Assembly: GCA_964422715.1 (NCBI GenBank)
Contig: CAYRCM010000003.1
Location: 15,377 to 79,376, forward strand
Reading direction: 5' to 3'
Origin: an uncultured Myxococcales bacterium
GTDB taxonomy: Bacteria > Myxococcota_A > UBA9042 > PWKZ01 > CAYRCM01
Length of the DNA: 64,000 bases
The notes beneath the pieces are model-generated. The model had not been told where the DNA came from and ran no database searches. It saw only the letters and a program-made list of their open reading frames with translations. Positions 30,594 to 63,458 of the stretch are shown here, piece by piece; position 1 is the stretch's first letter; each line of letters begins with the position of its first letter. The position numbers and the translations under genes are program-made.

Positions 30594-30606
30594 TGGGGAG
30601 GGGTGT

Positions 30607-32956: not shown

Positions 32957-33004
32957 TGTTCCGCGCTTCAAGCGTCGCTGGCGGACTCGTGAGGTAGCGA
33001 GACC

Positions 33005-38580: not shown

Positions 38581-38615
38581 GACGGGCGTCGCCGTAAGCG
38601 GGGAGAGCGGCTGCC

Positions 38616-39809
38616 ATGGCAAGCGGACAGACCGGAAAAGAAGTCTCCATCTCCATCAAGATCGATGGCAAGGAAACGTTGACCGGCTCGGTTGGGGGGT
38701 CCGAACCCCTCATCGACGGTGGGCCGATCCCGTACCTGCGGGTGGAGAAGTACCTGAACGCACCGGACAGCTGTGTGGTGCAGTTCAGCCAAATCAAAGA
38801 GGGCAAGATCGACATTCTCGATCAGGACTTCGAGGGCAAGTCCATCGTCATCGAGGCGGGTATCGGCCGCGGCAGTCGCGGGCCCCTGTTCGTTGGCGAG
38901 ATCGCGTATGTCGAGCCCCACTTCACCACGGGGGAAGAGCCTCCGTATACCGAGATCGGGGCGTACGACCACTCGCACCGCCTCACCCGCGGCACGCGTT
39001 CCCGAACCTGGGGCGACGGGGTCCAGGCGAGTGAGAAGGTCAGCGACGTCGCCAGCAACGTCATCTCGTCCAGCATGAGCCAGAAGGGCGATGCGACCGA
39101 CCAACTCTCGATCGACAAGGTCGACGCGTCGACGCCTCAGCACGCCTACGTCGCCCAGGTCAACCAGAACGACTACCAGTTCATGCGGCGGCTGGGCTAC
39201 GCAATGGGACGCGTGACCGACTCGGACTCGACCGCCGACGACAAGAAAGTCCGATTCGCCAAGATCGACCCATCGGCGGGCGAGGTCGTGACGATTTGCC
39301 GCGAGGCAGCCGGACAGGATCAGTCGCAGGTCCTTGCGACGAACATGCGTCTCGGTCTCAGCGCCGTTCGGCAGGTCGTCAAAGTCATCGTGCGCGGCTG
39401 GAACCAGAAAGAAAAGAAGAACATCGTCGGTATTGCTGAATCGAGCGACATCAGTTTCGACGGCACGCCGGGCTGGCAGCGTTCGGCGCAGGCGTTCTAC
39501 GGCAGCGCGAGCGCCGGGCGCGTCTACGAAGTGGTCAACCAGCCCGTCGACAGCAAGGAAGAAGCCGATGCCGTGGCGCAGGCTATCTTCAACGGGCTGT
39601 CGCTCGACTTCGTTACCGGCGAGGCCACGTTCCCCGGGCGACCTGGCATCAATCCGGGCGACATGGCCAAGGTTGACGGCAAGTACGGCGGACGTTTCGG
39701 TGGCAAGAAATTCCTCATCACGGGGGTTATCCATACCATCGACCGCTCCAACGGGTTCCTGACAACCCTCCAACTCGCGCGCAACGCCATCGGCGATCCC
39801 ACCGCCTAG
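38616..39809 (+). CDS. Baseplate hub protein, phage late control GpD / gp27 / VgrG-N-like
   Basis: 397 aa. …QNDYQFMRRLGYAMG… matches the Phage_GPD core. Has no gp5-like beta-helix spike extension. Confidence 0.7.
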   Translation: MASGQTGKEVSISIKIDGKETLTGSVGGSEPLIDGGPIPYLRVEKYLNAPDSCVVQFSQIKEGKIDILDQDFEGKSIVIEAGIGRGSRGPLFVGEIAYVEPHFTTGEEPPYTEIGAYDHSHRLTRGTRSRTWGDGVQASEKVSDVASNVISSSMSQKGDATDQLSIDKVDASTPQHAYVAQVNQNDYQFMRRLGYAMGRVTDSDSTADDKKVRFAKIDPSAGEVVTICREAAGQDQSQVLATNMRLGLSAVRQVVKVIVRGWNQKEKKNIVGIAESSDISFDGTPGWQRSAQAFYGSASAGRVYEVVNQPVDSKEEADAVAQAIFNGLSLDFVTGEATFPGRPGINPGDMAKVDGKYGGRFGGKKFLITGVIHTIDRSNGFLTTLQLARNAIGDPTA

Positions 39810-41431: not shown

Positions 41432-41446
41432 CCAGGGAGGTGGCCA

Positions 41447-44400
41447 ATGATCGGGGGCATGGTCCGACGGTTGACCTGGGCGGGACTCATCCTCGCCTGG
41501 GCAGCCACCTCGCCGGGCTGCAACAACAACGAACGCACGCTCCAGGCGAAGCGCATCGAGCGCGAAGACGAACTCATCGGAGGCCCGCTGGCCAAGGGCC
41601 AGATCGGCGACTTCCTGCTCGAAAACGACAAGGTCCGGGTCGTCATCACGGCCACGGGGCACTCGTGGGAAGTCGGCCTCTTCAGCGGCAGCCTCATCGA
41701 CGCCGACCTGCGCCGGCCCGAGCGGTCCTTTGTGGCGGCTGGCGGGCTCGACCAGTTTGCCGAGCTGTTTCCCACCGTGAATCTCGTCACGGCCAACCCC
41801 AATGCCCCCGTGCGCGACCTCGTCGCGGCCCCGGCCGGGGTCCCCATGTGGGCGCCCGACGGCTCGGGTCAGGTTACGAACGAGACACGGCAGCTGCGGG
41901 TTGTCGACGAGCACGTGAGCGGGGTCTGGATCGAGAGCGACGGCTCGGACGGCACCGAGGCCGCCGTGGTCGCCGAAGGGCGCGGCGCCTTCCTTTTCGA
42001 GGCGCTCGGCTTGCTCCAGAGCCCGGAACTCTCGGCGTTCGTGAAGAACCTGAAAGTTGGGTTCGACTTCCGGACGACGTATGCCGTCCGGCCGGGCGAG
42101 TCTTGGGTGCGCATGCGCACGACCATCCGCTACAGCCCGAGCGACGTGCCCGCCGGCTGTCCCGGTCTGCCGGGCGACGACTGCCCCCTCGCCTGTCCGG
42201 CGGGCTACGAAACCGAATCCGTACCGGGAACCGAGGACGCCGCAACCGGCGAATGGAGCGAACTCGACTGTCCGACGTGCCGCTGTACCGTCGCCGGGAG
42301 CCAGGACTGGCAGCGTGAAGCCTGCGCCAACGCGCCCGTTTTTCGCCCCGACCCGGCCGACCCCACGACCTGGCATCGCTTCTGCCACGTGCCGGGCCAA
42401 CCGACCGTTCCATGCACCGACTACGAGGACCCAGCGGCTTGCGAATGTGGCTGCCTCAAGAGCGATTTTGGCGTGCAGGGCGACTGCAGCGCCTCCGGCG
42501 GCTACCGCTTCGAGGAAATCGAGGTCCCGAAGGAAGGCGGCGAGCCGGGCGAAGTCCGCCGCGTGTTCTGTCCGGTCTGCGCGTGCGACGGCAGCGACGA
42601 CCTGCCGCTGTACACCGAGAGCACGAGCATCTTCAACGACATCATCGGCGACCTGCCGTTCATCAACCCACGTCGCTGGCAACCGGGGATGATCGCTGGC
42701 GATTTCCTCTTCTTCGGCAAAGAATGCAACGTGTTTGCACCGGGGCTCGGCTACGACGAAGACCGCCGCATCTTCGAAAACACCTGGGAAGGCATCGGCA
42801 CCATCTCCAACCCGCTCTGCACCGACTATGTGGCCGCCGTCGGCGACCGCGTGTCGTACGGCTACTTCGCCTACGATCCCACACTGAACGTCGACGAACC
42901 GATCGACTCGGCCCGCTGTCCGACGAAACGGCTGGCACTCGTCGGGCTCAACTACCGGCCGCAGCTCTGGGACGAGGGCTCGCAGACGTTCACGGACATC
43001 TTCGACCGGCACCAGCGTCGCCGGGCGCGCGCTGGCATCCGGCAGGCGCTCGTCGACGATTTCGGCGTGACCGACACGGGCGTGGCCAGGTCGTTGCTCA
43101 CGGCCTTGCGCGTCGAACGCACGCCGCTCGTGCTCCGCACGCTCGAAACCCACTGCTACAACGGCAAGGATGACGACGCCGACGGCGTTCGCGACTGCGA
43201 AGACACCGACTGCGCGGGCGCCACGTGCGACTTCCGCTACGAAGAGTGCGAGGGCAAAGACCCGTGTCCCGCAATCGAAGACCCCCCCGCCGATTGCGAT
43301 CGCACCGGCGACAGCCGTTGTGATGGCTCCGACCTGGCGATTCAAGCCGCCATCGACGCCTTCGACGCGGCGCTCGGCGTCGCCGTCGTGGCCGAATCCG
43401 TGTGCACCGACGGCCTCGACGACGACGGCGATGGGCTCACCGACTGCGACGACGGTGACTGCGGCAGCGGAGCGGGGGGCTGCGAAGTCGGAACTGCCGA
43501 CGATACCTGCAACGCCCGCGGCTGCCGGAGCGGGGAGGCCGACTGCCTTCGAACGGGCGACGACCCAGCGTGCTGCCTCAACGGGGCTGACGACGACGGT
43601 GACGGGGCGGTTGACTGCGACGACGACAACTGCGGCGTCGAGCCGGCCTGCCAGACTCCCGTGGCCTCGGCCGAAGACCTCCTCACGGTGGGCTTCATCC
43701 CGGCGCCGGAGTGTCAACAGCCGAAGCTGCTCATCCCCCTGTTCACGAACAGTGCCACGGCGGTCATCACGCACGGCAAGCGCTGTGCCACGAGCCCGCT
43801 CTACGGCGATACGTGTCAGGGGGAGCGCTCGCTGAGCTACGAGCGCTTCTTCCTGATCGGCGAAGGCGATGTCGCGTCCATCCTCGACAGCGTGTACACG
43901 CTGCGCGGACAGGCCACCGGCACGCTGCGCGGGGCCGTGCTCGAAGCCGGCACCATGCGTCCCGTGCCGCACGCCGACGTTTTCGTACTGCGACTTCCCG
44001 TGGCCGCTCCCGCGTCGGCCGCGGCCGAGGGCAAGGCGGTCGAACCGAGCGAAGACCAACAGAACGCCGACTTCCTGCGCTACGGCTTCGCCTGGCGCGA
44101 CCTCATGGACGTTCGCGATCCCTTCGACCGCAACAATCCGGTCACGTACGACATGCTCGTGCGCGCCAACGACATCGCGTTCGGCAACATGGGGTTCGTG
44201 ACCCAGATGCAGTGCGACCGGGGCAGCGACCCGCGGCTCGACGGCGACTTCCAGGGGCGCTTGCTGCCCGGCACCTACGCCGTGGTCGCGCGCGGGTCGG
44301 ACACGACGGTGTCGGCCCTCCAGATCGTCCAGGTGCGCTCAGGCCAAACGACCGACGTCTACCCGCTCGTGCCTCCGCCCGGCAAGGTCAACTACCGGGT

Positions 44401-47377
44401 CTACGATGAGCACGGCGCGCTCGTGCACGCCAAACTGGTGTTCGTTGCGCTCGATTCGGCCGGCGAAGAATGCACGTGGGATGGCCAGCCCGCCCGCAAC
44501 GAATCCGGGCGCATCTGTCCGTCGCGGCGGCGCGTCGAACTCGGCGACGGCCGCAAGGACGACGGCGTGCGCACGGTGCTCTACGCCCCCTTCGGCCAGG
44601 GCAGCGACAGCATCGAGCCCGGCCGCTACAACGTTTACGTGTCGCACGGGCTCGAATTCGGCATCGACGTCATCGAGAACTTCGAGGTCGTGTCGGGGCT
44701 CACGGTGACGCTCGAAGCCCAGATCCAGCGCGAACTCGACACCCAAGGTTGGATCGCCGGCGACTTCCACCTGCACGCCCGCCCCAGTTTCGATGGCGGG
44801 GTGTCCATCGAAGGCCGGGTCACGTCCAACGTCATCGAGGGCCTCGAACTGGTCACCGCCACCGACCACGATGTCGTCGTCGACTACTCGCCGTACGTCA
44901 ACAAGTTGGGGTATGAGCCCTACTTGAAGACCCAGGTTGGCGTCGAATTGACCACGCTCGAGTTTGGCCACTGGAACGCCTATCCGCTGCGATACGAGGG
45001 GTTGTCGTGGCCAGTCCACGGTGCCATTGACTGGGTGGGCCTCGACAACCAAGAGCTCGTCGACGTGATGCGCGACAAAGGGGTCAATGGGCCGGCCGAA
45101 ACCGTCGTGCAGTGCAACCATCCGCGCGACGGGTTCATGGGCTACCTCGACCAGCTCGGGCTCAACGTGCTCGACCTCAGCCGCGAGACCTCGTTGCTCG
45201 AACGGTGCAATCCACAAACCGAACGGATCTCCTGCGATTTCGACGCAATGGAGATCATGAACGAGAAACGCTTCGAGCTCATCCGCACGCCGACGGTGGG
45301 CGAACTCGACCGTTTCTCCGACTGCCTCAGACTTCTCGAGGCGGCCGAAGACAACGAAGACGTCGTCGATCTGCTCGGCGACGGCGTCGATGTGCCCGAC
45401 ACGGCGTGTCACTGGGCGCTGCACTTGCCGTTCGTCGATGCTCAGACGTGTCGCGACCAGGCCTGCCCCGGTATCGACGTCGACGCCGGGGTCCTGCCGC
45501 CCGACTGCCGCCGCCGCTGCGCCGATCTCGCCAGCGAACTCTGTGAAGCCGAGCGCTGCACGTTCGCCGGCGTGTCCGACCCGGACTTGCGCGCAGCGCT
45601 CCAGGGCCGTTGCCGCGCACGCTGCGCCGAGGATGCGCGACGCGACTCGCTGCGGCGGGCCTGGCATGAGGAATTCCGAGCTGCCATCGTCGGCAGCGAC
45701 GGGGCAAGCCACTGCGCCGACCCGACGGTCAGCATGCTCGACTGCAGACGCCACGCCTTCGAGGGGCTCAAGTATCTGGCCGTGCGCTACATGATCGAGC
45801 GCACGCCCGCCGAAGAAGAGGCCCTCATGAGCCTGCCCGCGGAGCAGGACCCAGGCTGCAAACTCAACCCCGAGACACCCGACGGTTGCCGCCTGCGCGA
45901 TACGGTTTCGGGGTGCCCGAACTGCTACTGCGAGTCGTGCGTGTGCGAGCTGGCCGCGCGCTATCCGCCGTTGGCCGGCTGCTGCGGCGAGGGAGGCTCG
46001 TGGGGCGAGAACTGCGCGCTCGCGTGCGACTGGCTCTGCAACGGCTGCACCGAGATTCTGCCCTGCACCGGTTTCACCAACATCCTCGACGACTGGTTCA
46101 AATTCCTGAACGCTGGCCTCATTATCACGGGGGTTGGCAACAGCGACTCGCACGACCTGCTCTACGAAGGCGGCATTCCGCGTACGTTCGTGCGTTCGTC
46201 GACCGACGTCCCATCCGCCATCGACCTGCGCGAGATCGGCCGCAACATCAAGGCACACAAAGCCATGTTCTCGACCGGACCGTTCATTCGCTTCGCGCTG
46301 TCCGGCGAAACCGGCGACCAGGCCGATATCGGCGAAACCCTAGTGCTGCCAGCCGGCGAGCCGGTGAAGGCCCACGTCGAAGTGACCACGGCGTCCTGGT
46401 TCGGCATCGACTATGTCGAGGTGTACCGCAACGGCGTGCTGGAATACGTCGCCTACCCGGGGCTCGACTACCCGGCTGGCGAGCCGAGCGACCGCCCGAG
46501 CGACATTCTCGACTACCGGGCGACGATCGAGTTTGCGCGCCCGGCCGAGGACTCGTGGTACCTCGTCCTGGCGTACGGTTTGGGTCCCGACAACGACCTT
46601 GCGCCCGTGTATTTCAGCCTGCCCTACGGCAAGATCCTGCTCCCGACCGTGATCGAACTCGGCTTCGGCCAGATCCTCGGCGCGCTCGGCTCCGCCGCCA
46701 AACCGCTTCTCGACATGTTTGGCATCGGCGGTGGCGCCCTGCCCGAGCGGTTCCCGACGCTTCCTTTTGCCGCCACCAATCCCATCTTCGTCGATGTCGA
46801 CGGCGACGGCTGGCGGGCGCCCGAGCAGCGTGTCCACGAAGTCGTTTCCACCGCGGCCGACGGGCGGGCCAAGACCTGCACGCTGGTCAAGGACGAGGCG
46901 GGCCAGGTGTTGCCCGTCCAGTCCGACTGCGCCGAGGGCGAACTCTGCGGCGACGACTGCACGCCGACGCTCGACGGCGATGGCAACGTCGCGCAGGCCT
47001 GCGACGAGCGGGGCTACTGCCTCGCCCCCGCGCCCGCCCTGCCGCGCTTCTGCTCTCAGCCCTGCCCGCTGAAGCGCAGCCCCGATGGCTTGTTCCAACT
47101 GGTGTCGTCGAACTGCGGCGAAAACCAAATCTGCGCCGATGACGGCGATGGCGACGACATGGGCTTGTGCATCGTGCCCGTCGACCTCGCGAAATGCCCG
47201 AACGTCCGGCCCGAAGACACGTTCCTCGGCAAGCACGGCACGCTCGCGAGCCAGCAGCAGGCGCTCACGAGCGGCGCGCCTGCGGGTTCGGCGGGCGATG
47301 AGACGGCGCGCGAGTTCATGGCCGCCTTCGCCAGCAAGTTCGTCGGCGCGTTCTTCGCTCGCTGCAGTCGCCACTAG
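41447..47377 (+). CDS. Giant (1976 aa) secreted lipoprotein with PHP-type metal-phosphoesterase motifs and Ca-binding/Cys-rich (MopE-like) modules
   Basis: Lipobox …ATSPGC. PHP-like motifs (DFHLHARPSFDGG…, …ATDHD…, …GVGNSDSHDL…). D-x-D-x-DG Ca-binding-like runs combined with Cys pairs (CTDGLDDDGDGLTDCDDGDC…). Confidence 0.65.
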   Translation: MIGGMVRRLTWAGLILAWAATSPGCNNNERTLQAKRIEREDELIGGPLAKGQIGDFLLENDKVRVVITATGHSWEVGLFSGSLIDADLRRPERSFVAAGGLDQFAELFPTVNLVTANPNAPVRDLVAAPAGVPMWAPDGSGQVTNETRQLRVVDEHVSGVWIESDGSDGTEAAVVAEGRGAFLFEALGLLQSPELSAFVKNLKVGFDFRTTYAVRPGESWVRMRTTIRYSPSDVPAGCPGLPGDDCPLACPAGYETESVPGTEDAATGEWSELDCPTCRCTVAGSQDWQREACANAPVFRPDPADPTTWHRFCHVPGQPTVPCTDYEDPAACECGCLKSDFGVQGDCSASGGYRFEEIEVPKEGGEPGEVRRVFCPVCACDGSDDLPLYTESTSIFNDIIGDLPFINPRRWQPGMIAGDFLFFGKECNVFAPGLGYDEDRRIFENTWEGIGTISNPLCTDYVAAVGDRVSYGYFAYDPTLNVDEPIDSARCPTKRLALVGLNYRPQLWDEGSQTFTDIFDRHQRRRARAGIRQALVDDFGVTDTGVARSLLTALRVERTPLVLRTLETHCYNGKDDDADGVRDCEDTDCAGATCDFRYEECEGKDPCPAIEDPPADCDRTGDSRCDGSDLAIQAAIDAFDAALGVAVVAESVCTDGLDDDGDGLTDCDDGDCGSGAGGCEVGTADDTCNARGCRSGEADCLRTGDDPACCLNGADDDGDGAVDCDDDNCGVEPACQTPVASAEDLLTVGFIPAPECQQPKLLIPLFTNSATAVITHGKRCATSPLYGDTCQGERSLSYERFFLIGEGDVASILDSVYTLRGQATGTLRGAVLEAGTMRPVPHADVFVLRLPVAAPASAAAEGKAVEPSEDQQNADFLRYGFAWRDLMDVRDPFDRNNPVTYDMLVRANDIAFGNMGFVTQMQCDRGSDPRLDGDFQGRLLPGTYAVVARGSDTTVSALQIVQVRSGQTTDVYPLVPPPGKVNYRVYDEHGALVHAKLVFVALDSAGEECTWDGQPARNESGRICPSRRRVELGDGRKDDGVRTVLYAPFGQGSDSIEPGRYNVYVSHGLEFGIDVIENFEVVSGLTVTLEAQIQRELDTQGWIAGDFHLHARPSFDGGVSIEGRVTSNVIEGLELVTATDHDVVVDYSPYVNKLGYEPYLKTQVGVELTTLEFGHWNAYPLRYEGLSWPVHGAIDWVGLDNQELVDVMRDKGVNGPAETVVQCNHPRDGFMGYLDQLGLNVLDLSRETSLLERCNPQTERISCDFDAMEIMNEKRFELIRTPTVGELDRFSDCLRLLEAAEDNEDVVDLLGDGVDVPDTACHWALHLPFVDAQTCRDQACPGIDVDAGVLPPDCRRRCADLASELCEAERCTFAGVSDPDLRAALQGRCRARCAEDARRDSLRRAWHEEFRAAIVGSDGASHCADPTVSMLDCRRHAFEGLKYLAVRYMIERTPAEEEALMSLPAEQDPGCKLNPETPDGCRLRDTVSGCPNCYCESCVCELAARYPPLAGCCGEGGSWGENCALACDWLCNGCTEILPCTGFTNILDDWFKFLNAGLIITGVGNSDSHDLLYEGGIPRTFVRSSTDVPSAIDLREIGRNIKAHKAMFSTGPFIRFALSGETGDQADIGETLVLPAGEPVKAHVEVTTASWFGIDYVEVYRNGVLEYVAYPGLDYPAGEPSDRPSDILDYRATIEFARPAEDSWYLVLAYGLGPDNDLAPVYFSLPYGKILLPTVIELGFGQILGALGSAAKPLLDMFGIGGGALPERFPTLPFAATNPIFVDVDGDGWRAPEQRVHEVVSTAADGRAKTCTLVKDEAGQVLPVQSDCAEGELCGDDCTPTLDGDGNVAQACDERGYCLAPAPALPRFCSQPCPLKRSPDGLFQLVSSNCGENQICADDGDGDDMGLCIVPVDLAKCPNVRPEDTFLGKHGTLASQQQALTSGAPAGSAGDETAREFMAAFASKFVGAFFARCSRH

Positions 47378-52852: not shown

Positions 52853-54202
52853 TCACTTCGCGGGCGGGGCCGCTGCGGTCGGGGGCTCTGGCGCGCGGTC
52901 GAGCACGAACGTGCCCGAGGCTCGCAACTTGCCGTCGTGCAGGTCGAACGAACCGCAGACGCGTTCTGCCGTGACTTCGGTCAGTTCGAGCTCGCCGGCT
53001 GTCAGAAAGGCGTTGAAGTGCAGCGTAACGCCCCCGGGCAGCCGAACCGTGGGAACGACCCGGAAGTCGTTGTCATCGTGAGGGCTGACTTCGTAGCGAC
53101 CGATGCGCAGAGCACGTCCGGTCAGACGCCGAACATCGAGGAGCAGCAACGTCTGGTCGCGGCCGAGTTTGCCGCGCCGCGGGTCGAAGTCGGCGGGCAG
53201 TGCAGCGTTGGCGAAGTAGAGTTCTATCGCATCATTGGCGGCCAGCGGCGCCTGCGGGGCAGCCGGGACGAGTCCGGCCGCCTTGGCGCTGTCGAAGGGG
53301 AGCGGTTCGGCGGCCGCCGTGCCCTCGCGCGCAACCGTGGCCTGTGTGGCGGGCGGGCAGCCGGGCGCGCCCCGCGGCGGCCGGGCCCGCCCCACGGCGC
53401 GCACAACGGCGCCGGCCCCATCGAAGTAGAGCCGTTCGCCGGCCCCATAGGGGGTGCCGCCAATCGTCATCGCCTGTCCGAGTTTGGCGGCGGTGAGCGT
53501 GTGTTCGGGGGCGCTTGCGTCGAAGTCGAGCACCGATCCGCGCGGGAACGACAGGTTCTGGACCGTGACCGGGGCCGCGAGCGTGGCGTGCGTGAGGTCG
53601 AAGCGTGGCGTGAGATAGATCCACTCGTCGGCCGCGACCGGCAGCCCCTTGACCCATTGGGCCTTGCGCAGGCGAAAGGCCACGAAACGTCCGTCGGGCT
53701 GGAAGCGAACCTCGGTGCCGGCCATGAGCGCCAGGCCCGAGACGGCGAAGTCGACGGCCAGCGTGCAGCCCGCGAGCGACTTGCCGGAGTAGAACGTGGT
53801 GTCGGTCTCGGCCGCGCACGGCGTGCCCGCAAGGGCCGTGGCGCGGTGCAGCCGCACGTTGGCCGGCTTGCCGCCCACCGTCGCCTGGACGACGTAACGG
53901 TCGGCGGGCAGGGCCTCGCCGTCCGCGAATTGCGGAAAGTCGGCGGGCAGCGGGGCGGGCCTGGGCTCGGGCAGGGGGGCCGCCGGGTCTGCGTCCGGGC
54001 GGGCCGACTCGCTCGGTTTCGGGTCGGCCGCGGGGCCGGGGGCCTTTGCGGCGGGCCCCGCGCCCGGGGCGGCCACGATGGGCGCGAGGCCGGTGGCCGC
54101 CGTGGGCTCCGGGCTCCGAGAACAGGCGAGCAGGAAAGCGAGCGCAAACAAGGCGCCCCCCGCGATGCGCACGGGGCGGTCACGGCGTACCGGTCGGTTC
54201 AC
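52853..54202 (-). CDS. Hypothetical lipoprotein, co-operonic with the M3 peptidase
   Basis: GTG at 54202 preceded by GGAG. Signal peptide plus …FLLACS lipobox, then a Pro/Ala-rich linker and a C-terminal globular domain. Its stop lies 10 nt from the pepF-like start. Confidence 0.5.
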   Translation of the reverse strand: MNRPVRRDRPVRIAGGALFALAFLLACSRSPEPTAATGLAPIVAAPGAGPAAKAPGPAADPKPSESARPDADPAAPLPEPRPAPLPADFPQFADGEALPADRYVVQATVGGKPANVRLHRATALAGTPCAAETDTTFYSGKSLAGCTLAVDFAVSGLALMAGTEVRFQPDGRFVAFRLRKAQWVKGLPVAADEWIYLTPRFDLTHATLAAPVTVQNLSFPRGSVLDFDASAPEHTLTAAKLGQAMTIGGTPYGAGERLYFDGAGAVVRAVGRARPPRGAPGCPPATQATVAREGTAAAEPLPFDSAKAAGLVPAAPQAPLAANDAIELYFANAALPADFDPRRGKLGRDQTLLLLDVRRLTGRALRIGRYEVSPHDDNDFRVVPTVRLPGGVTLHFNAFLTAGELELTEVTAERVCGSFDLHDGKLRASGTFVLDRAPEPPTAAAPPAK

Positions 54203-54527
54203 GGGTGCGGGCTCCTCGACGCGGCCACGGGGCCGCGCGGCAAGGTTTTTTGGGCCCGGGCGGGGGATCGAGACGGCCCCGCGGGCGGTTGCACGGCCGA
54301 ATGATAGGCGGCCACGGCGCGGAATGCACGCCCCGCCCGACCCAGTTCGGGGGGGGCGCCATCCGAGCGCGGGCGGCGCTCCCGCCAGGCCGGCTCGCCG
54401 TGAACGGCGTTGATCTTTGGATTCCAATGCCTAGACTGCGTCTGCCGCGCGCCGTGCTCGGCGTTCCGGTCGAACGGCACCGAACCGGACACTGCGTCAG
54501 CGGCCGACGGCACCAGGGGCGAAGCGT

Positions 54528-57500
54528 ATGACCAGCACCACGTTCTTGCCGCGGGCGTTCGCCGTCCTTGCGGGCGCCCTGTGGGTGGCCGCCTGTGGCA
54601 GCGAAATCACGAGTCCCGTGGGGTGGATGGATACCCTCTCGGGCGGCGACCAGACGGCCCCGCCGCTTTTCGACACGGGCCGGAGCGACGACGCGGACCT
54701 GCCGCCCAACCCGGGCGCCTGCACCCATGACGCCGAGTGCGCCGACGTCGTCGTGGGGCTCGGGCCCTGCTTGGTGGGCCGCTGCGTTGGTCTGCCGGGC
54801 CGTTGTGAAGCGCAGCCGGCCGAGGCGGGTTCTCCGTGCAGCGACGGCGACCCGTGCACAAGCGACGATGTCTGCGGCGCCGGCGGCTGTCACGGTACGG
54901 ACGTTGCGGGCTGTCTCGCCTGCACCGGCGACGCCGACTGCCAGCAGCGTGCCGAGCCCGATCTCTGCAAGGGCGCGCCGCGCTGTGTCGACGGGGTTTG
55001 CGCCCGCGACCCGGCCGGAACCGTCGACTGCACGTCGGCCGAAGACACCGCCTGCCGCTGGGCCGCGTGCGATCCGGCGACCGGGCAGTGCGAGCCGGTT
55101 CTGGCCGCCGACGGCACGCCCTGCGAACTCGGCGGCGGCGAGTCTGTCGACGTCTGCGAGCAGAGCACCTGCCTTTCGGGGCTCTGCCAGGTGACGCCGC
55201 TGCCCAACTGCTGCGCTCCCGACTGCGTCGCCCGGGCCTGTGGCCCCGACGGCTGCGGCGGGACTTGCGGCGCATGCCCCGACGGCGAAACGTGCGACGC
55301 CTCGGGGCAGTGCCGCTGCACGCCGAATTGCCTTGGCCGCGAGTGCGGCGGCGACGGTTGCGGTGGGAGCTGCGGCGAATGCGCCGGGGCCGACGTCTGT
55401 ACGCCCGCCGGGCGGTGCCAGTGTCTGCCGAATTGCGTCGATCGCGAATGCGGCCCCGACCCGTGCGGCGGCGTCTGCGGCACTTGCCCGCCTACGCTCA
55501 CGTGCGACGAGTTGACTGGGCAGTGCCAGGGCTGCCTGCCGCTTTGCGCTGGCAAGCAGTGCGGCGACGACGGGTGCAGTGGGTCGTGCGGCGAGTGCCC
55601 GGCGGGCATGGCCTGCAACGCGGTCTTCCAATGCGAAACGTGCCGGCCGGCGTGCGCCGGAAAAGACTGCGGCCCCGACGGTTGCGGCGGCGAGTGCGGC
55701 AACTGCGTCGGAGGCACGACGTGTGACGCGTGGGGGCATTGCGTCGGCTGCACGGCCGACTGCACCGGCCGCGAGTGCGGGCCCGATGGCTGTGGCGGCG
55801 AGTGCGGCAGTTGCGCCGCGGGCACCGCGTGCAACGCGGCGGGGCAGTGTGAGTGCATGGCGAACTGCGTCGGCCGGCAATGCGGCAGCGACGGCTGCGG
55901 CGGCTCGTGCGGCGCGTGCAGCCCGGAACTGCAGTGCACCGCCGACGGGCAATGCGCCTGCGTGCCGGCCTGCGCCGGGCGACGTTGCGGTCCCGACGGC
56001 TGTGGCGGCGAGTGCGGCACTTGCCCGGACGGGCACGTCTGCGGCGTTGACGGCCAGTGCGTCTGTGTCGCCGATTGCGTTGGCCGCGAGTGCGGCGACG
56101 ACGGCTGCGGCCATTCGTGCGGCAGTTGTGCGCCCAGTTTCGCCTGTGACGGCATGGGACAGTGCATTGGCTGCGCCCCCGACTGCGGCGGCCGGGCCTG
56201 CGGCGACGACGGTTGCGGCGGCTCCTGCGGCACGTGCACGGCTCCCCTCGTGTGCGAAGCCGACGGCCTCTGCCATGGCTGCACGCCCACTTGCAGCGGG
56301 CGGCAGTGCGGCGACGACGGCTGCGGGGGCTCTTGCGGTTCCTGTGGCGGTGACCTCGCCTGCGACGCGGCGGGGCAGTGCGTCGACCCCTGTCCCGTCG
56401 CCGGCACGCTGCGCTGCGGCGACGTCCTCGAGGCCACGACGGTCGGGGCTGCGAGCAACTTCCCGCTCTATCCTTGCGTTTCCTGGAGCGAGCAGGGGCC
56501 CGAGCGCATCTATCGCTTCGAACCCGACGCCGCGGTGACCTCCGCAACCTTCCAACTGAGCGGATTGGCCGGCGACCTCGACATCTTCATGCTGGTCGGG
56601 GCGTGCAGCCCTGCGTTGTGCCAGGCGTACGGCAACGACCGCATTGCCGATTTCGCCATCGCGGTCGGTCAGAACTATTTCGTCGCGGTCGACGGCTTCA
56701 ACGGCTACTCCGGCTCGTACACCTTGGCTGTCACCTGCCAGACGGCGTGCGTGCCGAACTGCACCGGCCGCGAATGCGGGGCCAACGGTTGCGGCGGCTT
56801 GTGCGGCACCTGCCCCGCCACCGAGGATTGCGACGCCTCCGGGCGGTGCGTGTGCCGGCCCGAATGCAGCGGTCGCGAGTGCGGCCCCGACGGTTGCGGC
56901 GGCGTCTGCGGCACCTGTTCCGCCGGGGAGAGTTGCAACGCCGCCGGGCAGTGCCAGGGCTGCGCCCCAAGTTGCGCGGGCCGCCAATGCGGTGCCGACG
57001 GTTGTGGTGGCTCCTGCGGCACTTGTCCGGCCGGTACGGTCTGCAATGCTTCCGGCCTCTGCGAGTGCGTACCCAACTGCGTGGGGCGTGCGTGCGGTCC
57101 GGACGGCTGCGGCGGCTCGTGCGGCTCCTGCGGCGCGGGCGAAACCTGCGACACGGCGGGGCAGTGTCAGGGCAGTTCTCCTTGCGGGGCCAACCTCGAT
57201 TCGCTGTTCACGTTGGCCTGCGGCGGCACCATCACCGACAACACGAGCGACCATGCCGGCGTGTTTTCGACCTACTCGTGTTCCGGTTGGTCCGAGACGG
57301 GCCCCGAGGTGCTCTACCGCTTCGTCGCGCCCGCGACCGAGACCGTCACGATCGACCTCGTGTCGTCCGACGCCGACCAGGATCTGTTCGTGCTCGACGC
57401 GGGGTGCCAGCCGACCGCGTGCCTCGCGTACGGCGACTGGTCCGTGTCTTTTCCGGCGCAAGCCGGCCAGACGTACTACCTGGCCGTCGACGGCTACGTC

Positions 57501-57755
57501 GGGGCGTCCGGCAACTTCGCTCTCGAAGTCGTCTGCTCGGGCGGGGCCAACAACTGCGGCGGCGTGCCCTACGCCGGCTGCTGCCGCGACGGACGCACGT
57601 TCTGGTGCGATCTCGACGCGTTGCACGCCATCGACTGCACCCACAATGAGTCGCCCAACAACACGTGCGGCTGGAACGCGGAAGCCGGCTTCTACGACTG
57701 CGGCGGGAGCGGCGCCGACCCGAGCGGGGTGTGGCCCGAAATCTGTTCGTTCTAG
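54528..57755 (+). CDS. Secreted lipoprotein with myxobacterial Cys-rich tandem repeats and two PPC-like beta-sandwich modules
   Basis: Lipobox …VAACGSE. About 11 plus 5 copies of a ~37-aa repeat C-x-P-x-C-x-GR-x-CG-x-DGCGG-x-CG-x-C. These are interleaved with …RIYRFEPDAAV…LDIFMLV…YFVAVDGFNG… and …VLYRFVAPAT…DLFVLDA…YYLAVDGYVG… modules. Confidence 0.8.
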   Translation: MTSTTFLPRAFAVLAGALWVAACGSEITSPVGWMDTLSGGDQTAPPLFDTGRSDDADLPPNPGACTHDAECADVVVGLGPCLVGRCVGLPGRCEAQPAEAGSPCSDGDPCTSDDVCGAGGCHGTDVAGCLACTGDADCQQRAEPDLCKGAPRCVDGVCARDPAGTVDCTSAEDTACRWAACDPATGQCEPVLAADGTPCELGGGESVDVCEQSTCLSGLCQVTPLPNCCAPDCVARACGPDGCGGTCGACPDGETCDASGQCRCTPNCLGRECGGDGCGGSCGECAGADVCTPAGRCQCLPNCVDRECGPDPCGGVCGTCPPTLTCDELTGQCQGCLPLCAGKQCGDDGCSGSCGECPAGMACNAVFQCETCRPACAGKDCGPDGCGGECGNCVGGTTCDAWGHCVGCTADCTGRECGPDGCGGECGSCAAGTACNAAGQCECMANCVGRQCGSDGCGGSCGACSPELQCTADGQCACVPACAGRRCGPDGCGGECGTCPDGHVCGVDGQCVCVADCVGRECGDDGCGHSCGSCAPSFACDGMGQCIGCAPDCGGRACGDDGCGGSCGTCTAPLVCEADGLCHGCTPTCSGRQCGDDGCGGSCGSCGGDLACDAAGQCVDPCPVAGTLRCGDVLEATTVGAASNFPLYPCVSWSEQGPERIYRFEPDAAVTSATFQLSGLAGDLDIFMLVGACSPALCQAYGNDRIADFAIAVGQNYFVAVDGFNGYSGSYTLAVTCQTACVPNCTGRECGANGCGGLCGTCPATEDCDASGRCVCRPECSGRECGPDGCGGVCGTCSAGESCNAAGQCQGCAPSCAGRQCGADGCGGSCGTCPAGTVCNASGLCECVPNCVGRACGPDGCGGSCGSCGAGETCDTAGQCQGSSPCGANLDSLFTLACGGTITDNTSDHAGVFSTYSCSGWSETGPEVLYRFVAPATETVTIDLVSSDADQDLFVLDAGCQPTACLAYGDWSVSFPAQAGQTYYLAVDGYVGASGNFALEVVCSGGANNCGGVPYAGCCRDGRTFWCDLDALHAIDCTHNESPNNTCGWNAEAGFYDCGGSGADPSGVWPEICSF
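55209..56390 (+). repeat. Tandem ~111-nt (37-aa) Cys-rich coding repeats, ~11 copies
   Basis: Periodic C…CGxDGCGGxCGxC motif, visible in the translation and in recurring gacggctgcggcgg / tgcggc DNA words. Confidence 0.6.
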
Positions 57756-58088
57756 CCGCGGCTGTCGGCGTCCCCCTTGACGTGGGCGAGAAGGCTCGCG
57801 GCCGCGCGGGGCCCACGGGTTTCCCCGCCGCCCTGCCGACCGACCGCGCAGCCCGTGCGCACCGCGGTGCTCCGGCCGAACCGTGATAGGCCGGGCCGCC
57901 GCGCAAGAGCCCGGCCTGTGCGGGGGCAGGGCATTTGACCGCTTTCTGGCGTTCGGGCACGATGCTTCACGCGGTTTCGGGTGGGCCTGCTCCAGGCCCC
58001 CGGGCGAGGCGGGTAGCCGCCGTCGCAGGACAGGACCGGCGGCGCGCGGTGGGCCCGCGAAGCCACAAGCGGAAGGGTAGGGGCGCAT

Positions 58089-61000
58089 ATGCCAATGACG
58101 CCGTTGAGAGCCTCGGATGCGCGTTGGCTCTGGTCGCTCTGTGCGCTTTGCCTCGTCGCGGCATCGGGGTGCGGCGGAGGCACGCCGGGGCCGAGCCTCA
58201 CGCAGACGCCGACGAGCGACGTCCGTTGGCCCTCCGGCGACGCCGGCGGGCGGGCGGCCGACATGGCACCCGGCGGCGATTCCGCCACCGGCGACGTCTT
58301 CGAGAAGGACGTCCTGACTCCCGACACAGCCGGCCCGGACGGGCACGCTGGCGACGCCGTCCCGCGGGATACGGCGTCGCCCGACCAACCCGGCGATAGC
58401 CTCCTGCCGGACGTCGCCCCGGACGGCCTCGGCGATTCGGTCGCGCCCGACATGCCGCCGTCCGACGTCTCGTTGCCCGAGGTCGCGCCGGACCAGTCGC
58501 CCGACGTTCCGCCCCTCGGTTGCCAGTCGGCCGCCGACTGCGACCTCGCGGGTCCGCCGCCCGCGTGCAACGTGTGGATCTGCATCGATCGAACGTGCCA
58601 GCCGCAGCCCGGCGAGGATGGCGTCACGTGTGACGACGGCGATCCGTGCACGCTTGACGACCGCTGCGTCGGGGGCAGCTGCCTCGGCGCCCCGCTGGCC
58701 TGCGACGACGGCAATCCGTGCACCGCTGACGGCTGCGACGAGACCGGCGTCTGCCTTTCGCAGCCGCTCGACGGAACGCCCTGCGACGACGGCGACGGCT
58801 GCACCGCCACCGACGTATGCGTTGCGGGTCTCTGCACGGGGACCTTCGTGTGCCCCTGCCAGGTCGCCGCCGACTGCGCGCCCTTCGAGGACGGCGACTG
58901 GTGCAACGGTTCGCTCGTTTGCCTCGACGAACGCTGCGTTGTCGATCCGACCACGCTCGTCGAGTGCGTCGACGACACGCCAGCCGATTGCACGGTCCCC
59001 CAGTGCGCGCCGGCAACCGGTCAGTGCGAGGCCGCAGCGGCGCCCGACGGGACGTCCTGCACCGACGACGACCCGTGCACCATCGACGACCGCTGCATTC
59101 GGGGGCTGTGCGAACCCGGCCAGCCGCCCGACTGCGACGACGACAATCCCTGCACCGACGACCTCTGCTCGCCGTCCGGCGCCTGCGCTCACGACCCGGC
59201 GGCCGAGCCGCGCGGCTGCGAGGACGGCGATCCATGCACCGGGCCCGATGTCTGCGCCGACGGCGCGTGCGTTCCCGGTCCCGAGGTCGTCTGCGAATCG
59301 GCTCTGCCCTGCGCCAGCGGCCTCTGCGCCCCGGGTGTCGGCTGCCAACTCGTGCCGAACGACGGCGCGCCGTGCGAGGACGGCGACTTCTGCACCGCGG
59401 GCGACGCGTGTTCCGGGGGGCTCTGCGCGCCGGGCGCGCCCGCGTTCTGCGACGACGGCAATCCCTGCACGAGCGAGACGTGCGAGCCGGCCACGGGTTG
59501 CGCAGTGCAGCCCCTCGACGGAGCGCCGTGCGACGACGGCAACCCGTGCACCGAGAGCGACAGCTGCCTCGACGGTCAGTGCCGCGGCAGCGATGTCTGC
59601 GAGTGCAACAGCCCGGCCGACTGCGCGCCCTACGAGGATGGCAACCCCTGCAACGGCACGCTCACGTGCGACGTCTCGGCGTTGCCCTACCGGTGTGTGG
59701 TCGACCCTGGAAGCGTCGTGCAGTGCGAGCCGGACGGCGATACGACCTGCCGCCAGAACGTCTGCGATCCCGCCTCCGGAACGTGCGACCTTGCGGCCCG
59801 CAACGAGGGCGTCGCGTGCGACGACGCCGACCCGTGCACGGTCGACTCGCGCTGCGCCGCGGGCTCGTGCAGCGGCGGCGCGCAGCTCGCGTGCGACGAC
59901 GGCAATCCGTGCACGAGCGAGGTCTGCACGCCCGGGGTAGGCTGTGAATACGGCGCCATCAGTGGTCCGTGCGACGACGGGGACTCCTGCACCCTCGGCG
60001 ACACATGCGTCGCCGGCCGCTGCGAGCCGAGCGACATCATCGACTGCGACGACGGCGATGCCTGCACGAGCGACAGCTGCACGACCTCCGGCGAATGCAC
60101 CTACGAAATCGTGCGCTACGGGCTGCCCTGCGATGATGGCGACCCGGCCACGGTCGCCGATCACTGTGGTCTCGAAGGGGAATGTGGCGGATGGCGTCGC
60201 GTTGTGGGCGACACCACCGGCAGCAGCGCCGCGCTCACCGACGTGACGTACGTCGACCAGATCTGGACGGGCTACGGATTCCAGCGGGTCGATACGGTAT
60301 TCGCAATCGGCAGCGACCGTTTCAACGGCCAGAGTCGCGGCTGGATCGTGCGGCTGCAGCCCGACCGCATCGAGGACATCGGCGTCTCGTCTTCCCCATC
60401 GGTCTTCCAGAGCATCTCCGGCGCCATGGCGTCGGGCAGCGGCGGCCTCGTCTATCGCTACCGCACGTCGGGCTGGGCGTCCGACAACGAATTGCTGAGC
60501 GCCCTCGGGCTGGGCGATGCCCTCGCCAACGTCGAGTTTCAGGCCGTCTCGTCTTTCCGCTCCACCGAACGCTATCCGTACGTGCTGCGCGTGCTGCTCG
60601 GAGCCGGCAACGTCTCGTCCGCGGCCGACCCGAGCCTGTTCTACTGCTACCGGCATTTGACGTGGGGCACCAGCTGGTCATGCGGCCGCGAATCCGAGCC
60701 CGCGGCGCGTGCGGTCGACGCCCTGGCGGGGTTCTCCGTGTCCTCGGGCGGCTACACCGTGGCGGGGCCGGGCTGGGGCCTGACGCACGACGATACCGGA
60801 CGCTACATCGCCTACCGTCCGGCCAACTCGGGTGAGCCCGGCGCCGGTTGGGTGAACGACGCCCCGCTCGGCTGCAACCCCGCGGCGACCGGCGCGCCCT
60901 GCGCCGGCGTCGGCGCGTGGCTCGACCTCGGCGGCTACGGCAGCACCGTCTGGGCTCTCGGTTCCGGCGGGGCGCTGGCCGCGTACACCTCCGACGCGGG

Positions 61001-61424
61001 CTGGCGGGCGGTCAGCGTGCCCACTGGCGCGTTGTTCGGCGGGTCTCAGCAGAGCGACTACGATTTCGACGGCGTCTACGTCACGAGCCAGCACGTCCAT
61101 CTCGTGGGCGAGACGGCGGCGAGTCCCACGACACCCGAGCCGGGCCGGCGCTACCGCACGCTCTTCTACCTGCACTACGACCTCGTGGCCGGGCGCTTCG
61201 ATCCCGTGCGAGCCTTGCTTGCCACGTCGTGTTCCGAGGCCGTCTCCGAAGCCGACAACTGCACGGCCGGCAACCCGCTCGAAACCTACCGCCTCGACGC
61301 GGTGACCGGCACCGATGCCGGCAGCAACGAACTGTTCGCTGTGGGCAAACGCAACCGGCTCGCCTCTTCGCCCGACGAGCAGAACCGCCAGCAGGCCCTG
61401 TTCTTCTACCTCGACATGCCTTGA
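58089..61424 (+). CDS. Secreted lipoprotein with Asp/Pro-rich linker, ~16 CxDGxPCTxDxC-type Cys repeats and C-terminal ~400-aa domain
   Basis: Signal peptide plus …AASGCGGG lipobox. A D/P-rich low-complexity region (…PDTAGPDGHAGDAVPRDTASPDQPGD…). Repeated …CDDGNPCTxDxCxxxGxCxxxPLDGxPCDDGD… units. Confidence 0.8.
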   Translation: MPMTPLRASDARWLWSLCALCLVAASGCGGGTPGPSLTQTPTSDVRWPSGDAGGRAADMAPGGDSATGDVFEKDVLTPDTAGPDGHAGDAVPRDTASPDQPGDSLLPDVAPDGLGDSVAPDMPPSDVSLPEVAPDQSPDVPPLGCQSAADCDLAGPPPACNVWICIDRTCQPQPGEDGVTCDDGDPCTLDDRCVGGSCLGAPLACDDGNPCTADGCDETGVCLSQPLDGTPCDDGDGCTATDVCVAGLCTGTFVCPCQVAADCAPFEDGDWCNGSLVCLDERCVVDPTTLVECVDDTPADCTVPQCAPATGQCEAAAAPDGTSCTDDDPCTIDDRCIRGLCEPGQPPDCDDDNPCTDDLCSPSGACAHDPAAEPRGCEDGDPCTGPDVCADGACVPGPEVVCESALPCASGLCAPGVGCQLVPNDGAPCEDGDFCTAGDACSGGLCAPGAPAFCDDGNPCTSETCEPATGCAVQPLDGAPCDDGNPCTESDSCLDGQCRGSDVCECNSPADCAPYEDGNPCNGTLTCDVSALPYRCVVDPGSVVQCEPDGDTTCRQNVCDPASGTCDLAARNEGVACDDADPCTVDSRCAAGSCSGGAQLACDDGNPCTSEVCTPGVGCEYGAISGPCDDGDSCTLGDTCVAGRCEPSDIIDCDDGDACTSDSCTTSGECTYEIVRYGLPCDDGDPATVADHCGLEGECGGWRRVVGDTTGSSAALTDVTYVDQIWTGYGFQRVDTVFAIGSDRFNGQSRGWIVRLQPDRIEDIGVSSSPSVFQSISGAMASGSGGLVYRYRTSGWASDNELLSALGLGDALANVEFQAVSSFRSTERYPYVLRVLLGAGNVSSAADPSLFYCYRHLTWGTSWSCGRESEPAARAVDALAGFSVSSGGYTVAGPGWGLTHDDTGRYIAYRPANSGEPGAGWVNDAPLGCNPAATGAPCAGVGAWLDLGGYGSTVWALGSGGALAAYTSDAGWRAVSVPTGALFGGSQQSDYDFDGVYVTSQHVHLVGETAASPTTPEPGRRYRTLFYLHYDLVAGRFDPVRALLATSCSEAVSEADNCTAGNPLETYRLDAVTGTDAGSNELFAVGKRNRLASSPDEQNRQQALFFYLDMP
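58610..60190 (+). repeat. Tandem ~105-nt Cys/Asp-rich coding repeats (CxDGxPCT…), ~16 copies
   Basis: Periodic tgcgacgacggc…ccgtgcac words and the protein repeat pattern. Confidence 0.55.
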
Positions 61425-61556: not shown

Positions 61557-63278
61557 CTACTCGGCGAGCGGATCGGCCAGGGTGCCCACGGCGTGGCATG
61601 CGTGGCGATGCGCTGCAATGGCTGGGTCGCGCAACGCTTCCTGGTAGGCCAGGCGGCAGTCTTGGAGGGCGCGGATGGCGCGCGGTTCGAGAGGCTCGGT
61701 CTCGACGTAGCGCACGACGGTGCCGGGATGGTAGGCGTAGAGCGGGTCGTGCGGCAGGGCCCGCTGCACGGCCTGGACGACGGACCCTCCGGGCGGCATG
61801 CCGCTGCCGATCTGCTGGGCGGATGTGCGCAGCGCTCCTGCTCCCGACAGCGCGACCCACGGGCTGGCCCACGTCTGCAAGTGTTCGACGGCTGCGGCCG
61901 TGGTGAGCGGGTCGACCACCTGATAGGAGCCGACGATGCGTTCGTCGAAGAGCCGGCATGCGCCGAGGCAATAGAGTTCGAGGCGGTCCATGAAGCCCTC
62001 GAAGCCCTTGGCTTCGAGATTGCCGTTGCCCTGGCGTTCGGACCACTCGGCGAACCGTTCGGACTGGCCGTCGAGCAGCGCATCGTCGGTCAGCGACGTG
62101 TTGTCGCCCCGCACGTGCGCCATGAGCAGGCTCGGAAGGTCGGTCGGCGGCTGCAGCGAGAAGTTGCGCTCTTCGATGGGCGGGATGTCGTAGGTTTCGA
62201 ATTCCTCGCGCATGTCGCGTGCGGCGGCGGCAAGCTCGGCTTCGGGCCAACCCGCGCCAAGTCCGCAACGGCGCGCCTCGGGCCGCCCGCGGTTGGCTGC
62301 CCAGCGTTCGAGCAAGGTGGCACCCAACAGATAGGCCGCGGCGCTGCGCAGGCGACCGCCGCCGGGCGCCATGCCCGCCATGCCGAACGCGCTGTACCGG
62401 GCGAGCTGCGGCGTGGCGTAACGGTGGCGCCGCAACGCCCCCGAAAACGCCGATCGGCTCAGTTCGAGCACGAGTGTTTCGGCTACCATCTCGATCGGTT
62501 CGAGCGGGTCGATGGGGCGCTGGCCGGTGCCGGTCTCACGGTCGACCACGTACACGCCGTGGAAGGGCGGGTTCGGGCCCGACTGTGCCGAATGCACCTC
62601 GCGAAAGGCCGCGTAGCCGTTGGCGCGGCCAATGAGGCGGCGCCGCTCGTCGTAGCCGACGAACAGCCCGGACAGAAACACGATGCAGCGCACGCGGGCG
62701 TTCGGAATGTGGCCGCGGACGGCGTCGGCGAGGCCGAGCAGGCTGCCCGACCCGATGCCGCCCGCGAGACTGGCCACGACGACCACCTCGATCCGTGGCT
62801 CGACTTCGGCGAAGCCGAGCGCCTTGGCGGCGGCAGCCGCAGCGGGGCTGCCGATCTGGGCAACCTGGCGATCGACTGCCGCCAGAAATTCGGCCTGGCG
62901 GTGCACGAAGGCCAGATGACCGATGAGCCGCGATCGCTCGGCGGGGAGCCCGGCCGTCGACGCGTTGTTGGGCAGAACCTCGGAGACCCCCGGCAGCAGA
63001 TCGGGGTGCGAGAGCATCTGCGCCGCCGTGGCCGCATGGAGCCTCAGCGACACGCGCGCCGTCTCGGATAGCGCCACCTTGCGCGCCACCCGTGCCGGCA
63101 GTTCGGGCGTGGGGTTGCGTTCGGTGTCGCGGTCGACCCACAGGAAGCCGGTAACGGGAAGCGACGTACGGCGGTACCGTTCGTAGAGCCGCCGCCGCGT
63201 GCGGAACACGACTTCGCGGCCGAGGCCGCCCAATCCGATGACCAGCGTCGGCCGAAGCGCTGCCGTCTCGTCCGCCAT
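61557..63278 (-). CDS. Tubulin/FtsZ-superfamily GTPase-like protein (Tubulin_2-type candidate)
   Basis: N-terminal Rossmann-like glycine loop (PTLVIGLGGLGREVV) and a T4-loop-like signature (SLAGGIGSGSLLG, compare tubulin GGGTGSG). 573 aa with no obvious FtsZ C-terminal tail. Confidence 0.5.
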   Translation of the reverse strand: MADETAALRPTLVIGLGGLGREVVFRTRRRLYERYRRTSLPVTGFLWVDRDTERNPTPELPARVARKVALSETARVSLRLHAATAAQMLSHPDLLPGVSEVLPNNASTAGLPAERSRLIGHLAFVHRQAEFLAAVDRQVAQIGSPAAAAAAKALGFAEVEPRIEVVVVASLAGGIGSGSLLGLADAVRGHIPNARVRCIVFLSGLFVGYDERRRLIGRANGYAAFREVHSAQSGPNPPFHGVYVVDRETGTGQRPIDPLEPIEMVAETLVLELSRSAFSGALRRHRYATPQLARYSAFGMAGMAPGGGRLRSAAAYLLGATLLERWAANRGRPEARRCGLGAGWPEAELAAAARDMREEFETYDIPPIEERNFSLQPPTDLPSLLMAHVRGDNTSLTDDALLDGQSERFAEWSERQGNGNLEAKGFEGFMDRLELYCLGACRLFDERIVGSYQVVDPLTTAAAVEHLQTWASPWVALSGAGALRTSAQQIGSGMPPGGSVVQAVQRALPHDPLYAYHPGTVVRYVETEPLEPRAIRALQDCRLAYQEALRDPAIAAHRHACHAVGTLADPLAE

Positions 63279-63458
63279 GCCTTAGTACCCCGTGACGCAG
63301 TGGTAACTCGTTACGACGCCTTGCGAAAAGGGCATGCGCCCCGCGCTGCGCCGAGCGGGGCGCATCCTAGCACACGCCTTTGCGGTGGGGCAACTTGCAG
63401 AGCGCCGGCGAGGAGGCGGTCCGCAGAACCGCGCCAGCCAGGCGCTCGGCGCGCACGC

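Follow-up and report, generated by a model that had tools for sequence, protein, structure and literature searches.

A bacterial gene that carries the signature loop of tubulins, stands apart from any cell division genes, and is half the usual length for its family raises the question of whether it encodes a GTP-driven cytomotive protein or something else built on the same fold. Such a gene lies near one end of a 64,000-nucleotide stretch of DNA (the window) from contig CAYRCM010000003.1 of an uncultured Myxococcales bacterium, where a first-pass annotation, made from the sequence alone, described it as a stand-alone tubulin/FtsZ-like GTPase gene, possibly of the Tubulin_2 family, and hinted at conflict and defense islands. 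The analysis presented here finds a true FtsZl1/Tubulin_2 gene with a tubulin/FtsZ-type nucleotide-binding fold. It is a rare, divergent form of a family already described in 2010, and the short form itself is new. Its product is probably a derived, hydrolysis-impaired FtsZl1 paralog that would, by analogy with FtsZ, serve as a static scaffold or regulatory subunit rather than as a dynamic GTPase.

Family Membership and Fold

The open reading frame (ORF) runs in an intact frame from ATG to stop on the reverse strand and encodes 573 amino acids, and both the AGGIGSGS loop and the N-terminal glycine-rich loop named in the first-pass annotation are present. Its GC content by codon position (0.74/0.52/0.85) follows the pattern of real genes in this window of ~68% GC, and its ATG start agrees with six homologs that align end to end. 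No transmembrane segment and no signal peptide are predicted for the protein, which is a soluble, cytoplasmic FtsZl1 member.

The motifs are no chance resemblance. The sole Pfam match found by hidden Markov model (HMM) search is Tubulin_2 (PF13809; E 1.1e-29, 104.3 bits against a cutoff of 27), as the first-pass annotation had guessed, and the 311 residues from 12 to 322 cover profile positions 1-354 of 356, essentially end to end. Neither Pfam Tubulin (PF00091) nor FtsZ_C (PF12327) is matched, nor is any model of NCBIfam, including those for FtsZ, and searches of Protein Data Bank (PDB) sequences with the protein and with a seven-sequence profile yielded nothing beyond noise (S17, adenylosuccinate synthetase; E of at least 0.06). 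By structure, the top 50 Foldseek hits are members of the superfamily only, and identity to solved tubulins, BtubA/B, Asgard tubulins, CetZ, TubZ/PhuZ, and FtsZ is 9-18%. The full-profile match and the Foldseek list together exclude a different Rossmann-type NTPase, the alternative that the first-pass annotation had raised against itself. Two closer candidates were also rejected: FtsZ proper, because Pfam gives PF13809 only, NCBIfam gives nothing, and the window has no dcw-cluster context; and TubZ/PhuZ, because the gene sits in a core-chromosome context and has no phage or plasmid relatives by tblastn (50,697 phage and 72,556 plasmid records) and no viral relatives among IMG/VR contigs.

Tubulin_2 is the FtsZl1 family of Makarova and Koonin (2010; PMC2875224), equated with PF13809 in PMC9871819. 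Most members consist of an N-domain, an extended coiled coil, and an alpha-helical C-terminal domain, without recognizable T6-H7 elements or an FtsZ/tubulin C-terminal domain, and their genes are predicted to share operons with those for vWA proteins, kinases, a divergent GTPase, and OmpA-like proteins, a context from which a role in membrane remodeling was proposed (PMC2875224). Experimental work on FtsZl1 after the 2010 description was not found in the literature searched, and no solved FtsZl1 structure was found in the PDB searched.

The window protein shares with this family the glycine backbones of the T1 (GxGGxG) and T4 ([AG]GGxGxG) loops, a basic H1 helix (RxRR..YE.Y), and the GRLAF and N.YAA..E motifs. 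As with FtsZl1 when first described, neither a T7 loop nor a canonical C-terminal domain of the FtsZ/tubulin kind was recognized in it. Its predicted model is all-helical after H7, with no beta-sheet activation domain or T7 synergy loop seen, in a region of low confidence (for the whole model the mean predicted local distance difference test score, pLDDT, is 64, with scores under 50 at residues 249-308 and over most of 449-528).

A Rare Short Form in Myxococcota

When 1.84 billion representative proteins were searched with a profile, 2664 family members were returned, and full-length matches to the window protein among them are limited to three representative clusters and one 126-aa fragment. 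After the full-length matches the score falls from more than 900 bits to 226 bits, and the matches at or below 226 bits are mostly proteins of 1050-1250 residues (median 1113) aligned only over their first ~240-340 residues. Two word-indexed searches of 5.8 billion proteins gave a total of seven short-form sequences, and the gain from a profile search of that larger set was a single kinase-fused long form. The short forms are 573-593 residues long, align end to end with ~150 invariant columns, and are 45-50% identical to the window protein. All derive from Myxococcota (Bradymonadales/PWKZ01-like) metagenomes: the one genome match among 185,579 GTDB species representatives is a Bradymonadales metagenome-assembled genome, and another short-form contig carries the label Myxococcota_PWKZ01. 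A scan of Joint Genome Institute metagenomes gave no confirmed short-form relative. In contrast to FtsZl1 at large, then, the short form is extremely rare and taxonomically narrow, and it differs from typical members in its length and in having no coiled-coil region, a feature that is typical of the family and not obligatory.

The shorter proteins retain part of the C-terminal helical domain. Their last ~170 residues align with long-form residues ~800-1000 in 24 representatives, with local HMM matches that are weak and consistently colinear (best i-Evalue 4e-9), and short and long forms have in common the pattern G(S/T)..hY.E....P......L..C...Y.........RH…LPD. This colinearity indicates that the short form is a long form minus two regions; judged by the alignment, it lacks the central ~400 residues, a region described as coiled coil in FtsZl1 long forms (PMC2875224), and the last ~170-200 residues of a ~1100-1200-aa long form. 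In a neighbor-joining tree the seven short forms make up one clade nested among long forms, which is consistent with truncation.

Replacement of Polar Residues in the Nucleotide Loops

The loops were named from where each motif falls in the predicted secondary structure, namely behind strands S1, S2, and S4 and directly ahead of helix H3, and the seven short forms were compared with 138 aligned long-form N-domains. Unlike in the long forms, the polar residues of all four loops are replaced. The T1 position that is Thr or Ser in 129 of 129 long forms is Leu in every short form. At T2, the Thr of 88% of long forms has become Arg, His, or Glu in all seven; the Asp before it (D49) is invariant, and the second Asp, found in 94% of long forms, survives in only two of the seven, giving the short-form pattern D[R/H/E][D/N]. 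The GAGQ of T3 is absent throughout, with variable residues and RSR in its place. At T4, Thr occurs in 137 of 139 long forms and Ile or Leu in all short forms (AGG[I/L]G[S/G]G). The Asp two residues after T4 (the D182 position; 93% of long forms) and the Pro after S5 (94%) are lost as well. Long forms have 49 columns with a conservation of 80% or more; 26 of these are kept in every short form, and seven are lost in every one. The T4 Thr is common to FtsZ (GGGTGTG) and tubulin (GGGTGSG) (signature in PMC2875224), and since both carry GGGTG(S/T)G, sequence comparison places the short-form loop state as the derived one.

The "GTPase" of the first-pass annotation is thus doubtful, its own diagnostic AGGIGSGS having Ile where nearly all representatives have Thr, and the polar residues of T1, T2, and T3 being replaced as well. 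The glycines themselves (G15, G17, G18, G20, G173, G174, G176, and G178) do not vary among the seven short forms, and D49, N220, and E227 are conserved. Invariance of every T1 and T4 glycine at 45-50% overall identity points to selection, not decay, and argues for a nucleotide site that has been re-tuned rather than one that is decaying. A further nearly invariant element appears to be specific to the short forms, the acidic loop REEFETYDIPPxEERN (residues 356-372), which falls in a low-pLDDT loop just after predicted H7; no counterpart was seen by eye in the few long-form sequences inspected.

Genomic Context of Short and Long Forms

As the first-pass annotation described, the gene lies between Cys-repeat lipoprotein genes and a SlyD/FKBP-like gene, and ftsA, ftsQ, and mur are absent from the annotated ORFs of the window. 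The SlyD/FKBP-like gene is on the same strand, 180 bp upstream, and a terminator-like hairpin followed by UUUU in the intervening sequence suggests that the two genes are transcribed separately; the folding energy of this intergenic region is indistinguishable from that of shuffled sequences, and a consensus promoter/terminator scan missed the hairpin. The window is otherwise core chromosome, with lon, clpX, clpP, tig, nuo genes, uvrA, a Ser/Thr kinase, and a PP2C phosphatase, and it also holds a LysM-M74 endopeptidase, a contractile-injection-system cluster, a NicO transporter, and an M3 peptidase. Unlike tubulins, BtubA/B, Asgard tubulins, CetZ, TubZ/PhuZ, and FtsZ, the window protein has no division, plasmid, or phage context, and, unlike TubZ/PhuZ in particular, which are encoded on a plasmid or phage with a TubR-type DNA-binding adaptor or a centromere, it is encoded in core chromosome and has no TubR-like partner.

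A Logan contig (L001) supplies 9 kb past the window end. There, on the strand opposite to the gene, are an S-adenosylmethionine (AdoMet) decarboxylase gene, genes for two vWA proteins (one with a VIT domain), a propeller protein gene, and genes for two outer-membrane protein (OMP) beta-barrels, the vWA and OMP genes lying 1.9-9 kb from the gene. The FKBP-like and AdoMet decarboxylase genes intervene, and the vWA and OMP genes are missing from the loci of relatives; their proximity is probably a coincidence.

Flanks were readable for five short-form lineages. In the relatives, the short-form gene lies between a gene for a ~590-aa Kelch-type lipoprotein and a gyrB/parE-like plus gyrA/parC-like pair, an adjacency seen at each of the four relatives' loci whose flanks are long enough (L002, L005, L009, and L011). 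Among these relatives the Kelch genes are 42-63% identical and the gyrB-like genes 69-83% identical, and the envelope neighbors are the Kelch lipoprotein and OmpA. The short-form gene is co-directional with the topoisomerase B subunit gene in L002, where it lies 81 bp upstream and rdgC follows, and divergent from the topoisomerase genes in L005, L009, and L011. Compared with the other, otherwise syntenic, loci, L002 has just this gene in reverse orientation, from which it follows that no operon lock exists. No tblastn match to gyrB, gyrA, or the Kelch gene turned up in the window or in its 9-kb extension, the SlyD/FKBP-like gene is missing from the relatives' loci, and the check for conserved neighbors found none common to the window and the relatives.

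By comparison, the nearest long forms (P0008 and P0009) belong to a compact co-directional operon whose other genes encode a 457-aa protein, a smaller one of ~210 aa (also given as 224 aa), and an HSP70-like protein (actin-fold ATPase) of ~990 aa, and these three partners are conserved between two diverged loci (L014 and L015), the latter of which also encodes a protein with a faint GrpE match. This set is not among the partners named in the text consulted of the 2010 FtsZl1 description. No homologs of the three were found in the window, in L001, or in the relatives' short-form loci. The window gene thus differs from FtsZl1 in having no vWA, OmpA, kinase, GTPase, or HSP70-like operon; it has no co-directional operon partner, and "stand-alone", the term chosen in the first-pass annotation, is a fair description.

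Proposed Function and Alternatives

The nearest experimental parallel is Escherichia coli FtsZ T108A, altered at the same T4 Thr, which has almost zero GTPase activity and still forms rings on membranes; these rings are static, with no treadmilling and no subunit turnover (PMC5979038). The window protein likewise has a non-hydroxyl residue in place of the T4-loop Thr, and by this analogy the short form is predicted to assemble without GTP hydrolysis or treadmilling. The parallel has limits, as T108A is one engineered mutation in a protein with an intact T7 loop and C-terminal domain, whereas in the short form four loops have changed, naturally, in another family. The reading that we favor, with somewhat better than even confidence, is of a hydrolysis-impaired FtsZl1 paralog. 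The backbone amides of its glycine loops may still bind nucleotide or some other phosphate ligand, and GTP hydrolysis would be poor or nil given that the polar residues of T1-T4 that serve in catalysis or gamma-phosphate sensing across the superfamily are replaced. On this view the protein would be a static scaffold that assembles by itself, or a regulatory subunit held in a nucleotide-locked state, rather than a GTP-driven filament that treadmills. Its gene is chromosomal, is passed on within a small Myxococcota (Bradymonadales/PWKZ01-like) lineage, and probably has a transcript of its own.

Several considerations weigh against this proposal. Phosphate contacts in tubulin and FtsZ are made mostly by backbone amides, and T7 contributes the catalytic residue in trans, so a protein with such substitutions could retain some activity; the acidic motif at residues 356-372 could itself supply a catalytic residue in trans. 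We infer the loss of hydrolysis solely by analogy with FtsZ, and the T2 and T3 assignments from the family alignment and predicted secondary structure, in a model of moderate quality. The motif statistics come from the best 150 of the 2664 matches, and the backbone of the neighbor-joining tree is without resolution or support values.

That the short form is instead a compact but fully functional cytomotive GTPase, engaged with envelope proteins in membrane remodeling or vesicle biogenesis as Makarova and Koonin proposed, is unlikely. The retained loop glycines, D49, N220, E227, and the 26 family-conserved columns would suit such an enzyme, the acidic loop after predicted H7 could in principle play a T7-like role, and envelope genes occur near the short-form gene in every locus: the Cys-rich lipoproteins and the more distant vWA and OMP genes in the case of the window, the Kelch lipoprotein and OmpA in the relatives, with vWA and OmpA counting as classical FtsZl1 partners (PMC2875224). 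None of these, however, is a partner conserved between the window and the relatives, and the vWA and OMP genes are on the opposite strand beyond unrelated genes; the coiled coil is missing; and polar residues have been lost from four nucleotide loops, when the T108A change alone abolishes the GTPase of FtsZ (PMC5979038). Adjacency to the topoisomerase pair in all four relatives' loci would fit a role in chromosome organization or segregation tied to that type IIA topoisomerase, by analogy with DNA positioning by TubZ/PhuZ. This is quite improbable: the linkage is not clade-wide, since the window and the adjoining 9 kb have no such genes, the flipping orientation leaves no operon constraint, the four loci represent one lineage that may simply share synteny, and neither a TubR-like DNA-binding partner nor any plasmid or phage relative was found.

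The hint of a conflict or defense function fares worse, and membership of the gene in an anti-phage or conflict system is hardly credible. A contractile-injection-system cluster is present in the window at 28-40 kb, more than 20 kb away, and the gene itself offers no support: it matches no PADLOC-DB family at E ≤ 1, has no phage, plasmid, or viral relatives, lies in core chromosome with topoisomerase neighbors in its relatives, and no literature linking Tubulin_2 to defense was found. A decaying, functionless relic of a truncated long FtsZl1 gene would account for the halved length and for the loss of catalytic-type residues and operon; against it stand the seven sequences with the same length and ends, whose invariant columns extend over the whole protein and include clade-specific motifs at 45-50% identity, and the intact frame with its gene-like codon-position GC. 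The relic explanation is accordingly most improbable, and a pseudogene is rejected by the conservation across the seven short forms.

A bolder reading, possible if rather doubtful, is a natural "pseudo-GTPase" of the tubulin superfamily, in which a Myxococcota lineage would have made FtsZl1 into a compact, operon-free scaffold that is nucleotide-locked, nucleotide-free, or re-ligated. The pocket would be re-tuned by the hydrophobic L19 and I175 and by new cationic residues at T1-T3, and the acidic loop may mediate a new contact, for which the adjacent type IIA topoisomerase and an envelope lipoprotein are candidates. Such a protein would rank as the first catalytically degenerate homolog of tubulin to be described from prokaryotes and maintained by strong purifying selection.

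The finding overturns nothing. FtsZl1/Tubulin_2 is among the most divergent branches of the tubulin/FtsZ superfamily, and a soluble member of 573 aa that lacks the long coiled coil is a tractable entry to the first structure and biochemistry of the family; its systematic, selected replacement of catalytic-type residues would also be a natural experiment on the tubulin fold without GTP turnover. For annotators, a "tubulin signature" in this setting is not to be taken as "GTPase", "cell division", or "defense".

Features and Neighboring Genes

Table 1. Coordinates of the short-form gene, its motifs, and its immediate neighbors in the window
Feature	Position	Strand	Basis or remark
Short-form FtsZl1/Tubulin_2 gene, 573 aa + stop	61557..63278	-	ORF; PF13809 E 1.1e-29; six full-length homologs, 45-50% identity
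Tubulin/FtsZ-like nucleotide-binding domain, residues 12-322	62313..63245	-	
T1 loop GLGGLGR, residues 15-21	63216..63236	-	Follows predicted strand S1; long-form consensus GLGG[T/S]GK
T2 position DRD, residues 49-51	63126..63134	-	Family consensus DTD
T3 position AERSRLIGHL, residues 113-122	62913..62942	-	Just before predicted helix H3; consensus G-AGQIR..GRLAF
T4 signature loop AGGIGSGS, residues 172-179	62742..62765	-	Family consensus AGGTGSG
Acidic/proline motif MREEFETYDIPPIEERN, residues 356-372, nearly invariant	62163..62213	-	Invariant alignment columns; apparently short-form-specific
C-terminal alpha-helical domain, residues ~397-573	61560..62090	-	Weak colinear HMM matches to long-form ~800-1000
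Terminator-like hairpin, 12-bp GC stem then UUUU	63326..63365	-	Fold of intergenic RNA, between FKBP-like gene and short-form gene
SlyD/FKBP-like gene, 144 aa	63459..63893	-	NCBIfam PRK10737 E 6e-16, below curated cutoff; neighbor only
1111-aa Cys-rich lipoprotein gene, convergent on short-form gene	58089..61424	+	Pfam Dicty_CTDC; neighbor only

Around the gene, the SlyD/FKBP-like gene has no Pfam match, and the RNA fold downstream of the short-form stop codon is not significant against shuffled sequences. The two Cys-repeat lipoprotein genes (54528-57755 on the forward strand and the 1111-aa gene of Table 1) both encode very large proteins with lipobox signal peptides. The product of the former has ~20 copies of a CGxDGCGGxCGxC-type Cys repeat and PPC domains. 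That of the latter has, besides Dicty_CTDC-type Cys repeats, a ~440-aa C-terminal domain without a detectable family; its identification with the Kelch propeller lipoprotein of the relatives was rejected, as BLASTP and hhalign comparisons with the Kelch neighbors were negative. A 2158-aa ORF (54180-60656, reverse strand) runs antisense to both lipoprotein genes and fails a filter on GC content at third codon positions (GC3); it is almost certainly a shadow ORF of high-GC, repeat-rich sequence and no gene.

Beyond the window, positions 1129-7833 of L001 form a co-directional cluster of vWA, VIT-vWA, Reg_prop/propeller, and the two OMP beta-barrel genes. The relatives' loci with Kelch-lipoprotein and topoisomerase B/A flanks occupy L002 7866-16451 and L005 4877-13646, with the same flanks in L009 and L011. 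The topoisomerase of these relatives scores between the gyrase and topoisomerase IV models (NCBIfam equivalogs), and a strict regular expression found no GyrA box in its A subunit. The long-form operons lie at L014 691-9231 and L015 7901-22226, the latter extending further downstream.

Elsewhere in the window, a 1981-aa ORF (41432-47377, forward strand) has gene-like codon GC and zero Pfam matches, and lies after a porin-like gene and before the NicO-type transporter gene. The contractile-injection-system or phage-tail-like cluster (28290-39809, forward strand; annotated on either side of 30-37.8 kb) encodes a sheath protein (PF04984 and PF17482), a gp19-type tube protein, a CIS_tube plus LysM protein, and a GPD baseplate hub, and within this region GC content falls to 0.59-0.63 at 28-32 kb.

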